From positions 1-5,962 of the IMG/VR virus record IMGVR_UViG_2579778952_000007: 5,962 nucleotides of DNA; one strand, 5' to 3'. This stretch comes from a virus (Duplodnaviria; Heunggongvirae; Uroviricota; Caudoviricetes). The notes under the pieces were generated by a model. That model had not been told where the DNA came from and searched no databases. It saw only the letters and a program-made list of their open reading frames with translations. How positions within the stretch are numbered: the stretch's first letter is position 1; the number at the start of each line of letters is the position of its first letter. Shown piece by piece: positions 1-5,787 of this stretch. Position numbers and translations under genes: made by a program.

Positions 1-74
1 AAATAAAATTTAATCCTTAACCGGAGGGATTTCTGCACCCTCAGAACATCAGGAGGCCGCCTGAAAGGGCGGTA

Positions 75-497
75 ATGAAAATGACTGAATTAACAAAAGA
101 ACAATTAATCGAAGAAGCCAAATTAAAAATAGCGATTACGAAATGCCACCCCAATTCAGGGATGGCGCGAGTAGAGGGCGAGTTATTCAAAATTGCACTG
201 GCATCGCTGGAAGCAGAGCCGATAGCGTGGCGATATCGCTACGTGAAAAAAGGTGTTATGGACTCTCAGGGGGAGTTGTGGGTTGGTGACTGGAAATATG
301 TACCGAAAAAAGAGGATTGTAACGACAGGCCGAACTATGAAATTCAGGCCTTATTCACTGCCCCACCAGTCCCTGTTACATCAGAAGAACTGGTTAAAGC
401 TGTGCACTTTTATGAACAACTAAAACGCGAAAATCCACCAGTATCCGGCAACCAGATTAATGGGTTAACTATGCCGGTTAAACGACCAGCCGACTGA
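75..497 (+). CDS. Hypothetical phage protein, 140 aa; function not recognised
   Basis: Uninterrupted ORF with ATG at 75 and a second in-frame ATG at 81. AGGAGG at 51-56 lies upstream, and a 5-bp hairpin (57-61 / 68-72) sits between it and the start. Charged, non-hydrophobic protein with composition like the neighbouring phage genes. No family recognised by eye. Confidence 0.55.
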   Translation: MKMTELTKEQLIEEAKLKIAITKCHPNSGMARVEGELFKIALASLEAEPIAWRYRYVKKGVMDSQGELWVGDWKYVPKKEDCNDRPNYEIQALFTAPPVPVTSEELVKAVHFYEQLKRENPPVSGNQINGLTMPVKRPAD

Positions 498-3088: not shown

Positions 3089-3463
3089 ATGCTCATAGAT
3101 TTGGTTTTACCTTACCCGCCGACGGTGAACACTTACTGGCGACGCCGTGGCAGCACATATTTTATCTCGGAGGAGGGAAAGCGTTATCGCCGGGCTGTGG
3201 CGCTTATTGTTCGCCAGCAGCGGCTGAAATTAAGCCTGTCCGGAAGGCTGGCGATAAAGGTGATTGCAGAGCCACCGGATAAGCGTCGTCGCGACCTGGA
3301 CAATATCCTGAAAGCACCGCTGGATGCGCTGACGCATGCGGGAGTGTTAATGGACGATGAGCAGTTTGATGAAATCAATATCGTTCGTGGTCAGCCAGTA
3401 TCTGGTGGACGTATGGGGGTGAAGATTTACCCCATAATGCATGAAGAGCAGGTCAAAAAATGA
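3089..3463 (+). CDS. rusA: RusA-family crossover junction endodeoxyribonuclease (Holliday junction resolvase), 124 aa
   Basis: AGAGG at 3078-3082 is 6 nt before ATG 3089. The product carries the RusA signature: N-terminal LPYPPTVNTYWRRRG and the catalytic-region block KRRRDLDNILKAPLDALTHAGVLMDDEQ, comparable to [22 protein letters not shown] in E. coli RusA. The stop TGA 3461-3463 overlaps the next ATG (ATGA). Confidence 0.85.
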   Translation: MLIDLVLPYPPTVNTYWRRRGSTYFISEEGKRYRRAVALIVRQQRLKLSLSGRLAIKVIAEPPDKRRRDLDNILKAPLDALTHAGVLMDDEQFDEINIVRGQPVSGGRMGVKIYPIMHEEQVKK

Positions 3464-4281
3464 AACTGGAAGATTTACCGAAATACTACTCCCCAAAATC
3501 CCCTGGCCTGACCGATGCATCGGCCTCAACGTCAAAAGATGCGCTGAGTATCACTGATGTGATGGCCGCGCAGGGCATGACACAGAATCGGGCTGAGATG
3601 GGGTTTTCTGCGTTCCTGGGGAAAATGGGCATCAGTATGAATGACAGGGCGCGGGCAACAGAATTACTGGCAGATTATGCACTCAGTCGGTGCGATCGTG
3701 TGGCGGCGTTGAGAAAACTTCCGGCAGAAATAAAACCGGTAGTGATGCGCATTATGGCTTCGTATGCGTTTGAAGATTATGCCCGTAGCGCGGCGAGCAA
3801 AAAACAGTGCCCCTGCTGTCACGGAAAAAAATTTATTGAAAGCGAGGTTTTTACAAACAAGATCCAGTATCCGGATGGTAAGCCACCAGTGTGGGCAAAG
3901 TGCACAAAAGGCGTGTACCCGTCTTACTGGGAAGAATGGAAAAAAGTCAGGGAGGTGGTAAAAGTTGCCTGTCCGGAGTGTGGCGGAAAGGGTGAGGTTT
4001 CCACCGCCTGTAAGGATTGCCGTGGGCGTGGTGTCGCCATTCATCGTGAAGAGTCGGTAAAACGTGGTATGCCTGTTATCAGAGATTGCCAGCGTTGTGG
4101 TGGTCGTGGCTATGAAAGACTACCATCAACGGAGGCATTTAATGCCATACGCAAAGTGACGAGTGCTATCACGCTTGATACGTGGAAAAAATCAGTGAAA
4201 CGCTTTTACGATACGTTGGTGGTTCGGTTTGACATTGAAGAGGCATGGGCGGAGCGGCAGTTAAAGAGGGTAACGCGATAG
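3460..4281 (+). CDS. Late-gene antitermination protein Q family (long 82/Qin-type), 273 aa, with four CxxCxGxG zinc-finger repeats
   Basis: Positioned immediately after rusA and before a promoter-terminator pair, as Q is in lambdoid phages. The product contains CPCCHGKKF, CPECGGKGEV, CKDCRGRGV and CQRCGGRGY. Family assignment rests on synteny and recollection of long Q proteins, not on an alignment. Confidence 0.65.
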   Translation: MKLEDLPKYYSPKSPGLTDASASTSKDALSITDVMAAQGMTQNRAEMGFSAFLGKMGISMNDRARATELLADYALSRCDRVAALRKLPAEIKPVVMRIMASYAFEDYARSAASKKQCPCCHGKKFIESEVFTNKIQYPDGKPPVWAKCTKGVYPSYWEEWKKVREVVKVACPECGGKGEVSTACKDCRGRGVAIHREESVKRGMPVIRDCQRCGGRGYERLPSTEAFNAIRKVTSAITLDTWKKSVKRFYDTLVVRFDIEEAWAERQLKRVTR

Positions 4282-4286
4282 TGTTG

Positions 4287-4315
4287 TTGATTTTTCCCGA
4301 ATCTGTGGTAAATTT
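4287..4315 (+). promoter_or_regulatory. Candidate PR'-like late promoter: TTGATT, 16-bp spacer, TGgTAAATT
   Basis: -35 TTGATT at 4287-4292 and an extended -10, TG at 4306-4307 plus TAAATT at 4309-4314, immediately downstream of the Q stop. The terminator about 65 nt further on would give a short 6S-like leader RNA. Position-based inference only. Confidence 0.3.
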
Positions 4316-4361
4316 GCTCTAACGATGGGCGTTTTATGCCTGACGTTAGAAGGATTTTTAC

Positions 4362-4386
4362 AGCCCGCCATCGAGCGGGTTTTTTA
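4362..4386 (+). terminator. Rho-independent terminator (tR'-like) downstream of Q
   Basis: Stem CCCGC (4364-4368) / GCGGG (4375-4379) with a 6-nt loop, then T-run 4380-4385 (TTTTTT). Confidence 0.65.
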
Positions 4387-4520: not shown

Positions 4521-5240
4521 ATGGGTATGGATGACAGCACTCTGCTGAGGAACTCTTCACTTTTTATTGCTTATATGGGCTGTCTTGGATGGGGAAGCGC
4601 TTATTTCTATGGATGGGGGACTTCCTTTTATTATGGCTTTCCATGGTGGATCGTCGGGGCTGGCGTTGATGATGTGGCCCGAAGTTTGTTTTATGCTGTG
4701 AGCGTTATCGTTATATTCCTTACTGGATGGGGAGTAGGTATTGTTTTCTTTTTAGGCATAAAACAAAAAAACAATATACAGAATTTGAGTTTTATCAGAC
4801 TTTTTCTGGCAATATTGCTGCTTTTTATTCCGCCTGTTCTGGAGTTTTCGGTAATTCATCAGCACGTTGAGCCAGATGTGCTGTTTTTTTGTGTTATTGC
4901 TGCCTTTACAATTACGCTTTTTGTCAGGTCAGGAAGAAGACTTATTTCAGTAAAATGTTTTTCGGAAGTGTCTTTTATTCGCCATCACCGAATTGAGTTT
5001 ATTATGGCTGGATTCATGATTTATTTCTGGACATTCTCTCTTATTGCCGGTTGGTATAAACCTCAGTTTAAGAGGGAATATCAGATGATCCACTATGAGA
5101 ATACTTGGTATTACGTTCTTGCACGCTATGATGATCGTCTGGTTTTATCGAAATCGTACAGTAATGGGAGTTCTGCATTCGTTATACTTAATAGCGGGCA
5201 GATTGATGACTTTGAAATTAATGTAGTCAGAGTTCGTTAA
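4521..5240 (+). CDS. AT-rich multi-pass integral membrane protein of unknown function, 239 aa (moron-like cargo; alternative start 4527)
   Basis: Uninterrupted frame ATG 4521 to TAA 5238-5240, with a second in-frame ATG at 4527 lying 6 nt after GAGAG (4516-4520). About five hydrophobic helices (for example SLFYAVSVIVIFLTGWGVGIVFFLGI and FIRLFLAILLLFIPPVLEFSVI) plus a roughly 55-aa hydrophilic C-terminal tail. Composition is markedly more AT-rich than the flanking Q and tRNA genes. Candidate own promoter: TTGACT at 4459-4464 with a weak -10 near 4483-4488. Confidence 0.7.
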   Translation: MGMDDSTLLRNSSLFIAYMGCLGWGSAYFYGWGTSFYYGFPWWIVGAGVDDVARSLFYAVSVIVIFLTGWGVGIVFFLGIKQKNNIQNLSFIRLFLAILLLFIPPVLEFSVIHQHVEPDVLFFCVIAAFTITLFVRSGRRLISVKCFSEVSFIRHHRIEFIMAGFMIYFWTFSLIAGWYKPQFKREYQMIHYENTWYYVLARYDDRLVLSKSYSNGSSAFVILNSGQIDDFEINVVRVR

Positions 5241-5324
5241 TATTGCCTGAGTAACTTTCTGTTGACCGCTCAGATTCTTTTATCATGTGTAGGCCAATAT
5301 GCAGGATTTAATCAGGGTAGGGTA

Positions 5325-5353
5325 TTGCAGAGCTAAACTGGCATAAGTATTAT
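5325..5353 (+). promoter_or_regulatory. Candidate sigma70 promoter for the tRNA cluster: TTGCAG, 17-bp spacer, TATTAT
   Basis: -35 TTGCAG at 5325-5330 and -10 TATTAT at 5348-5353. The predicted start falls about 7 nt before the first tRNA at 5363. Confidence 0.45.
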
Positions 5354-5362
5354 TCCGCATAT

Positions 5363-5438
5363 GGCCCTTTAGCTCAGTGGTGAGAGCGAGCGACTCATAA
5401 TCGCCAGGTCGCTGGTTCAAATCCAGCAAGGGCCACCA
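5363..5438 (+). tRNA. ileZ: tRNA-Ile2 (anticodon CAT, ileX/ileZ-like lysidine tRNA); tRNA-Met not excluded
   Basis: 76 nt with full cloverleaf: acceptor GGCCCTT / AAGGGCC, D-arm TAGCTCAGTGGTGAGAGC, anticodon loop CTCATAA (CAT at 5396-5398), T-arm GGTTCAAATCC, discriminator A and encoded CCA. Closely resembles E. coli ileX as I recall it. Confidence 0.85.
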
Positions 5439-5445
5439 TCACATA

Positions 5446-5522
5446 CCGCCATTAGCTCATCGGCAGAGAGCGCCTGCTTTCGAAACTGGCTGTGTGAGGC
5501 TCGGGTCCCCGATGGCAATCCA
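5446..5522 (+). tRNA. Degenerate tRNA-like element, possibly a tRNA-Arg(TCG)-like pseudogene
   Basis: 77 nt foldable as a cloverleaf: intact D-arm GCTC / GAGC with 9-nt loop, anticodon loop TTTCGAA (TCG at 5480-5482), and a 3' end reading disc-T plus CCA (5519-5522). But acceptor pairs 1-72 and 2-71 are mismatched, the anticodon stem has 2 mismatches, the T-stem has 1, and the T-loop CTCGGGT departs from TTCRANT. Confidence 0.35.
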
Positions 5523-5535
5523 TTATCTGCATTAT

Positions 5536-5612
5536 GCGTTGTTAGCTCAGCCGGACAGAGCAATTGCCTTCTAAGCAATCGGTCACTGGTTCGAATCCAG
5601 TACAACGCGCCA
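5536..5612 (+). tRNA. argN: tRNA-Arg (anticodon TCT, argU/argN-like; reads AGA/AGG)
   Basis: 77 nt: acceptor GCGTTGT / ACAACGC, D-arm TAGCTCAGCCGGACAGAGC, anticodon stem ATTGC / GCAAT with loop CTTCTAA (TCT), T-arm GGTTCGAATCC, discriminator G and encoded CCA (5610-5612). Confidence 0.85.
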
Positions 5613-5624
5613 CGCTTATTTTTC

Positions 5625-5649
5625 CAGGCTCGCTTCGGCGGGCCTTTTT
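5625..5649 (+). terminator. Rho-independent terminator after the tRNA cluster
   Basis: Stem GGCTCGC (5627-5633) / GCGGGCC (5638-5644) with one G-U pair and a TTCG loop, followed by TTTTT (5645-5649). Confidence 0.6.
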
Positions 5650-5787
5650 CATATCCGCGCCACGCCCGGCGCACATCAAAAAACCACAGAGCCTTTCAGG
5701 GATGAGCTTACGGGATGGTCAGTGTGACTTTCTCTGTGGGCTGGTCAGCCCCGGGCGCAGGCTCACCCACTAAAAGGAAAAGTCACG

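Follow-up and report, generated by a model that had tools for sequence, protein, structure and literature searches.

Stx phages carry a cluster of three tRNA genes, ileZ, argN and argO. In the Stx2 phage 933W the order is Q, pR', the putative tRNA promoter pT, ileZ, argN, argO and then stx2. The middle gene of this phage (AF125520, 21205-21281), which we used as the reference argN, is a tRNA-Arg(UCG); its anticodon loop, CCUUCGAAG, presents the anticodon UCG, which the depositors annotated as reading CGN codons, and it folds as a perfect cloverleaf that scores 54.8 bits against the Rfam tRNA model (RF00005, curated gathering score 29 bits). The other described elements to which the present locus can be compared are tRNA pseudogenes, which share with it tRNA ancestry, a sub-threshold score and omission from annotation, as well as uncompensated mismatches, lost conserved bases and ongoing mutation in the population. 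Searching the literature on ileZ, argN, argO and phage tRNA pseudogenes, we found nothing on a degenerate argN.

The tRNA cluster of the prophage and its middle element

The stretch of DNA analysed here (the window, 5,962 nt) is part of a lambdoid, non-Stx prophage of ETEC-like E. coli and has 4 differences over its full length from the prophage of E. coli E400634. Its genes run from hokD/sok through DUF968, RusA, the Q antiterminator (3460-4281) and a 237-aa hypothetical protein to the tRNA cluster, after which come a TerB-family gene, DUF3927, holins, an endolysin-type peptidase, terminase and portal. The tRNA cluster (Table 1) matches the ileZ-argN-argO clusters of Stx phages and occupies the same map place as that of 933W, after Q and ahead of the lysis genes, the difference being that 933W carries stx2 where this prophage has the TerB-family gene.

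Table 1. Coordinates of the tRNA genes, spacers and putative transcription signals of the cluster
Feature	Position	Strand	Basis
Putative tRNA-operon promoter (-35 TTGCAG, 17-nt spacer, -10 TATTAT); ends 9 nt upstream of ileZ	5325..5353	+	Read from sequence
ileZ-type tRNA, anticodon CAT, intact (tRNA-Ile in PGAP)	5363..5438	+	ARAGORN; Rfam tRNA 72.5 bits; identical to 933W ileZ
Spacer 1 (TCACATA), 7 nt	5439..5445	+	Invariant in 36/36 lineage members
Degenerate argN allele, probable tRNA-Arg(UCG) pseudogene, 77 nt	5446..5522	+	Rfam, ARAGORN, 933W alignment
Spacer 2 (TTATCTGCATTAT), 13 nt	5523..5535	+	Lineage-invariant; identical to 933W; varies with the middle-gene allele
argO-type tRNA-Arg, anticodon TCT, intact	5536..5612	+	ARAGORN; Rfam 70.1 bits; invariant in lineage
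Intrinsic terminator-like hairpin after argO, 8 pairs (6 G-C), then TTTTT	5626..5653	+	Terminator scan

The putative promoter has the same two hexamers, at the same spacing, as the 933W site annotated 'pT; putative tRNA promoter', with a diverged spacer sequence, and it is probably a pT-like tRNA promoter; a consensus promoter scan did not list it, since its -35 hexamer agrees with the consensus at no more than 3 of 6 positions. A terminator is annotated in 933W at the place downstream of argO that corresponds to the hairpin in Table 1. From promoter to terminator, ileZ, the middle element and argO look like one transcription unit, as judged from these signals.

Divergence between the two clusters lies almost entirely in the middle. 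The ileZ genes show no substitution, the argO genes differ once, at loop position 37 (A in the window, G in 933W), and the only difference between the spacers is one of 2 nt in the length of spacer 1. The middle element shares with 933W argN the slot between ileZ and argO, the 77-nt length and the TCG anticodon, and the two are colinear and identical at 64 of 77 bases with no gaps; the 13 substitutions, 10 of which are transitions, compare with 1 difference in the 153 nt of ileZ and argO (Fisher, 3e-6). By position, colinear homology and anticodon alike, the element is the positional orthologue of argN. Since the gapless alignment lies between the same neighbours, and since PGAP annotates a tRNA-Arg at exactly 5446-5522, an intact argN allele, in the near-identical prophage of E500002, the element is argN and not a chance likeness to a tRNA; its end-to-end alignment with the tRNA model (below) points the same way. 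An earlier interpretation made from the letters of the window (the sequence-only reading) had suggested an alignment with Stx-phage clusters, which gave the colinear match described here. It had also correctly read the anticodon as TCG but considered this unexpected for the argN slot, which is wrong, as 933W argN has TCG too. The tRNA of unusual identity that it offered as one explanation finds no support, TCG being the normal argN anticodon.

Written domain by domain, the element is CCGCCAT-TA-GCTC-ATCGGCAGA-GAGC-G-CCTGC-TTTCGAA-ACTGG-CTGTG-TGAGG-CTCGGGT-CCCCG-ATGGCAA-T-CCA; with a single extra D-loop base (20a), tRNA numbering equals the linear position minus 1 beyond position 21. Standard pairs are formed at 16 of the 21 stem positions (7 + 4 + 5 + 5). 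The D stem is intact, the acceptor stem keeps 5 of 7 pairs (C1.A72 and C2.A71 are unpaired), the anticodon stem 3 of 5 (U29.U41 and C31.A39 are non-standard) and the T stem 4 of 5 (A51.C63 is non-standard), with a U49.G65 wobble in addition. The T-loop is CUCGGGU, compared with a UUCGAAU-like sequence (T54 to C, A58 to G), and the D-loop has C at position 19 instead of the usual G19, so that among the bases of tertiary interactions G18, U55 and C56 are present and G19, T54 and A58 are gone. It is the 13 substitutions relative to 933W argN that break the five stem pairs and remove these three bases. The anticodon loop, UUUCGAA, retains seven bases with U33, the anticodon UCG and a purine, A37, and the 3' end is CCA. 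On all these points the sequence-only reading holds: it had described a degenerate tRNA-like element between two intact tRNAs, with a cloverleaf outline and a 3'-terminal CCA, mismatches in the acceptor, anticodon and T stems and a non-canonical T-loop. The changes remove several determinants of tRNA folding, namely the G19-C56 elbow contact, the T54-A58 pair of the T-loop and five stem pairs. The kept 77-nt length, U33, UCG, A20 and CCA may nonetheless leave weak residual activity.

A permissive search of 5436-5536 (101 nt) with the Rfam tRNA model gave 18.0 bits (E = 0.1), below the cut-off; the intact ileZ and argO genes score 68-72 bits (72.5 at most). Model positions 1-71 align end to end with 5446-5519, the alignment flags the non-standard pairs, and no Rfam family other than tRNA matched the element. 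Both ARAGORN at default and Rfam at the gathering score skip it. The check for pseudogenes with ARAGORN that had been proposed gave a call, tRNA-Arg(tcg), under the relaxed -ps setting, the sole setting to do so. There is, then, a cloverleaf-compatible alignment and no high-scoring canonical call. The cloverleaf has a predicted energy of -8.2 kcal/mol, 14.6 kcal/mol above the minimum free energy (MFE) of -22.8 kcal/mol, and is about 20 kcal/mol less stable than that of an intact argN; the MFE fold is not a cloverleaf. A stable alternative fold was sought and was absent, the MFE compared with shuffled sequence giving z = +0.63. In the genomes with the degenerate allele that were inspected or listed, PGAP has no feature at this place and annotates tRNA-Ile and one tRNA-Arg. 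Open reading frames over the element, for example 5417-5674 on the minus strand (85 aa), cross the tRNA genes, and we judge them to be spurious.

Variation and exchange of the middle slot

Scanning IMG/VR for the ileZ 3' end returned 120 loci, in which the region downstream of ileZ is highly polymorphic. A signature 16-mer of the window's variant defined a lineage with 36 true members (viral contigs) in IMG/VR. In these, the 77 nt of the element fall into 8 haplotypes with 9 segregating sites (tRNA positions 18, 25, 27, 29, 43, 51, 52, 55 and 75), the length being 77 nt in 36/36 members, without insertions or deletions. Around it, ileZ, argO and the two spacers, 173 nt together, have 0 variable sites in the same 36 contigs (P = 1.8e-5 versus the element, Fisher). 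Between the element and the spacers alone, the contrast falls short of significance (P = 0.2 and P = 0.06), the spacers being as invariant as the functional tRNAs, and the spacer data are therefore unable to calibrate the neutral rate. Nor do the flanks allow a clean neutral-rate comparison, since they are mosaic and often non-homologous, with the invariant tRNAs and spacers as the only part in common.

The element is under no structural constraint. Compensatory changes were sought over the cloverleaf pairs of the 8 haplotypes and none was found, no pair having changed on both sides; in the cloverleaf register 82.7% of cells are paired, a share that drops to 29-43% when the partners are slid by 1-3 columns. 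Two changes in the lineage produce G.U wobbles, a pair is broken by each of four private mutations (A29U, G43A, G51A and G52A), and further ones fall on G18, on the universally conserved U55 and on the CCA. The five of the 8 haplotypes that were scored with Rfam (Hd 26.4, Hb 23.7, Ha 22.2, Hg 19.8 and the window's 18.0 bits) are all below the 29-bit cut-off, with the window's haplotype lowest; Hd, which is less decayed, is called by default ARAGORN. This pattern suggests that the gene had died by the time of the lineage's ancestor and that its decay continues.

Among 5,426 complete E. coli genomes, 87 carry the lineage, many of them ETEC (e.g. H10407) and some STEC, and no annotated feature lies under the match among the matches listed. 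The cluster itself occurs in 3,062 E. coli genomes. The window's haplotype, with its additional A51, is matched exactly in E400634 only; the next 13 genomes differ by one base over the 97-nt query, which in strain 025542-1 is G51 in place of the window's A51. The lineage was found solely in prophage-derived contigs and bacterial genomes, and a megablast of the element with its spacers against the phage collection gave no match. The 16-mer GGTCCCCGATGGCAAT, searched across 596 Gb of genome contigs, returned chance matches in unrelated organisms only, the pattern being too short.

Comparison with close relatives suggests how the allele reached this prophage. Aligned colinearly with the window, the E500002 prophage is 99.5% identical, with 27 differences in 5,962 positions, of which 19 fall within 5455-5534, 80 nt that span the element and spacer 2 (binomial P = 5e-30). 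The invariant ileZ and argO genes lie on either side of this patch, and the nearest differences outside it are at 5253 and 5702. Spacer 2 variants differ among the allele classes of the middle slot; that of E500002 (TTATCTGTACCCT) has 4 positions changed and, together with the E500002 allele, belongs to another class that is common in the IMG/VR sample. Strain 025542-1, which has the same dead allele as the window, differs from it at 17 positions, 1 of them in the element, with no significant excess (P = 0.2). The simplest reading of these sequences is that alleles have been swapped between prophages by recombination and not mutated in place. Short-patch homologous recombination could use the conserved ileZ and argO genes as homology arms and move the middle gene with its downstream spacer as a cassette, which would explain the occurrence of the same dead allele in unrelated flanks.

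The slot is also often damaged in other lineages. We surveyed 89 ileZ-X-argO clusters from an unbiased IMG/VR sample, in which contigs are counted, many from related isolates, and the counts are not independent events. Slot X was intact or nearly so (0-1 defects) in 39 of the 89, had three or more defects in 18, took an 80/81-nt form with a replaced anticodon arm in 25 and was shortened (66 and 76 nt) in 6; one was not parsed. By comparison, argO was without a non-standard pair in 81 of 88 clusters (Fisher P = 2e-12 versus slot X). The other degenerate alleles (the 80/81-nt form, a 'GGAG...GAAGG' lineage, a 66-nt deletion and argN-argO chimeras) resemble the window's in occupying the same position and in having lost canonical tRNA structure. 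They differ from it in being independent lesions, the window's lineage having decayed by point substitutions only, and the A71/A72 acceptor mismatches are confined to the window's lineage.

Several of these alleles have features of their own. The commonest dead form, of 80/81 nt (CCGCCATTAGCTTATCAGGAAGAGCAGACGACACGATAACAGGGTTGTTGGTGCGGGGGCGGGTCCCCGATGGCGGTCCA; L006, L013, L014, L023 and about 20 other IMG/VR loci), has intact acceptor strands and unrelated sequence in place of the anticodon arm. An apparent argN-argO chimera at three IMG/VR loci (ACCGCCATTAGCTCATCGGGATAGAACGCCAGCCTTCTAAGCAATCGGTCACTGGTTCGAACCCAGTACAACGCACCA) takes its 5' half from argN and its 3' half from argO, carries the anticodon TCT and has the appearance of a deletion in which the two paralogous Arg tRNA genes recombined. 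A second argN lineage with point mutations, at 16 IMG/VR loci (...GCGCGGAGTTCGGGTCCCCGAAGGCGGTCCA), combines the mismatches A52.C62 and A6.A67 with G58. Since it is still called tRNA-Arg(tcg) by ARAGORN at default settings, some 'intact' calls in databases may also be compromised genes. At 12 loci (L007, L044, L045, L046, L061 and others) the same ileZ 3' end precedes a different set of tRNAs, Lys(ttt), Thr(tgt) and Gly(tcc), the first of which has a CCGCCA... 5' end like that of argN.

Variation was also seen in argO and around the cluster. Seven contigs have a compensatory double change in the T stem of argO (CACTGG...CCAGT to CAGTGG...CCACT), and in four contigs argO is truncated right after the anticodon loop and continues into unrelated sequence. 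A related prophage with a different downstream module (L142) has an Rfam STnc100 sRNA match (1-142, minus strand, 94.6 bits, partial at the end of the locus) about 0.7 kb downstream of the tRNA cluster. Upstream there are sub-threshold isrK-like matches, at 5076-5157 of L142 and at 173-246 of L125. Matches to 'Plastid-ycf2' antisense to ileZ were discarded as artefacts of tRNA similarity.

Readings of the degenerate allele

We propose, with a probability of about 85%, that the element is a co-transcribed, non-functional argN pseudogene, a tRNA-Arg(UCG), in the middle slot of the ileZ-argN-argO cluster. The sequence-only reading had left three options, and it is the decaying tRNA that the evidence backs, through the sub-threshold score, the broken pairs and the uncompensated mutations; a spacer or processing element finds no support in it. 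On this proposal, selection for structure would no longer act on the remnant, which would persist because two tRNA genes under strong selection lie close by, at 7 nt and 13 nt. It would be transcribed along with ileZ and argO, from the pT-like promoter to the terminator, and be freed by the RNase P cut at the 5' end of argO and the 3' trimming of ileZ. The resulting misfolded fragment of ~77-97 nt would presumably be degraded and not aminoacylated; in E. coli, quality control of defective tRNA proceeds by polyadenylation and then by 3' exonucleases. Two features set the element apart from typical tRNA pseudogenes. It lies inside a compact, presumably active tRNA operon between intact genes, where it is very probably still transcribed, and it is one circulating allele of a polymorphic slot, beside intact alleles.

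Whether neutral decay is the whole story can be questioned. The slot is damaged in about half of the sampled lambdoid prophages, by at least five independent lesions, with ileZ and argO kept and the dead alleles spread between phages as a cassette. On this basis, one may speculate that the loss of argN is more than neutral decay, or that the remnant is kept as a processing handle for its neighbours, although we regard this as unlikely. If it were true, a tRNA-Arg with the anticodon UCG might at times be harmful, for instance by causing miscoding, or because a host tRNA-directed defence targets it or is triggered by it.

A new role for the element itself, as an exapted tRNA-derived element serving as a processing handle of RNase P/RNase E for ileZ and argO, as a decoy for a tRNA-targeting enzyme or as a regulatory sRNA, is in our view improbable. 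The uniform length in 36/36 lineage members and the invariant spacers would fit such a role, as would the survival of acceptor pairs 3-7 and most of the T stem with the CCA, a remnant that resembles the acceptor/T-stem minihelix with CCA recognized by RNase P; other degenerate slot alleles likewise keep the acceptor and T arms and lose the anticodon arm. However, with ~9 substitution events in the lineage, the absence of indels is expected by chance, and mutations have also struck the T stem (G51A, G52A), U55 and the CCA. There is no covariation and no stable alternative fold, and the only Rfam match is tRNA. Moreover, some clusters have deleted or fused the slot (the 66-nt forms and the argN-argO chimeras), and hence it is not required.

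That the element is a working, non-canonical tRNA-Arg(UCG), charged and reading CGA and CGG despite its mismatches, is very improbable. It does retain the 7-nt anticodon loop with U33, UCG and A37, the CCA, the intact D stem, and also A20 and C35, which are identity elements for ArgRS in E. coli; ARAGORN with -ps calls it tRNA-Arg(tcg), the less decayed haplotype Hd is called at the default settings, and CGA and CGG are fairly frequent in the prophage. Against this stand the five broken stem pairs and the missing elbow-building bases G19, T54 and A58, the score of 18.0 bits versus 29, the cloverleaf 14.6 kcal/mol above the MFE and the continued gain of uncompensated pair-breaking mutations in the lineage. 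PGAP, too, leaves the place blank in the genomes that were inspected or listed, although the intact allele of E500002 does receive an annotation. Least probable is local hypermutation of an otherwise intact gene (e.g. transcription-associated mutagenesis), which could account for 19 of 27 differences from E500002 inside 80 nt and for the 10 transitions among 13 changes against 933W, but which we reject, preferring an allele swap: the 11 changes that define the lineage recur across 36 contigs and 87 genomes whose flanks are unrelated, marking the allele as an old and shared one, the E500002 allele and spacer 2 match a different widespread class, as a swap predicts, and against the closest relative with the same allele the element holds 1 of 17 differences (P = 0.2).

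Returning to the pseudogene reading, the reason why argN can be lost may lie in redundancy. In E. coli, CGA is read by the abundant inosine-containing tRNA-Arg(ICG) and CGG by tRNA-Arg(CCG), and the scarcest tRNAs are the readers of AGA, AGG and AUA. Since CGA and CGG are already covered by host tRNAs, argN would be the most redundant of the three genes. We also considered low codon demand as a reason for a dispensable argN, and it is unsupported: per 1000 codons, the prophage uses CGA 7.7 and CGG 10.0 times, at least as often as AGA (6.9), AGG (5.7) and AUA (6.9).

A dead argN allele explains the unannotated 97-nt gap in the tRNA cluster of this prophage, a result of little import by itself, as the element is a previously unannotated but ordinary tRNA pseudogene, almost certainly dead. 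Annotation pipelines silently omit this element, and phage tRNA counts consequently differ among near-identical prophages; such differences reflect the state of the allele and not gene content. The ileZ and argO pair forms a conserved recombination anchor around a polymorphic and frequently dead slot. ileZ and argO are under selection and argN often is not, and the cluster could be used, as a natural experiment on a small scale, to find out which phage-borne tRNAs are selected in E. coli.

Other features of the prophage

Outside the tRNA cluster, the window contains a complete type I toxin-antitoxin locus of the hok/sok type, formed by the sok RNA at 978-1153 (Rfam 116 bits, gathering score 59) and hokD at 1148-1303, which is annotated by PGAP in matching genomes. 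Four positions (374, 2709, 2711 and 2724) differ in the window from all three closest genomes (E400634, 025542-1 and E500002). Three of these sites lie within 16 nt inside the DUF968 gene; the private sites may represent a small conversion patch or sequencing differences. The 237-aa open reading frame between Q and the tRNA cluster (4527-5240, plus strand) has no Pfam match, is annotated as hypothetical and contains a terminator-like hairpin at 4860-4883. Further terminator-like hairpins on the plus strand, at 4315-4331 and 4362-4381, follow directly on the Q gene, at the place taken in lambdoid phages by tR' (after pR'/qut) and in 933W by annotated terminators.
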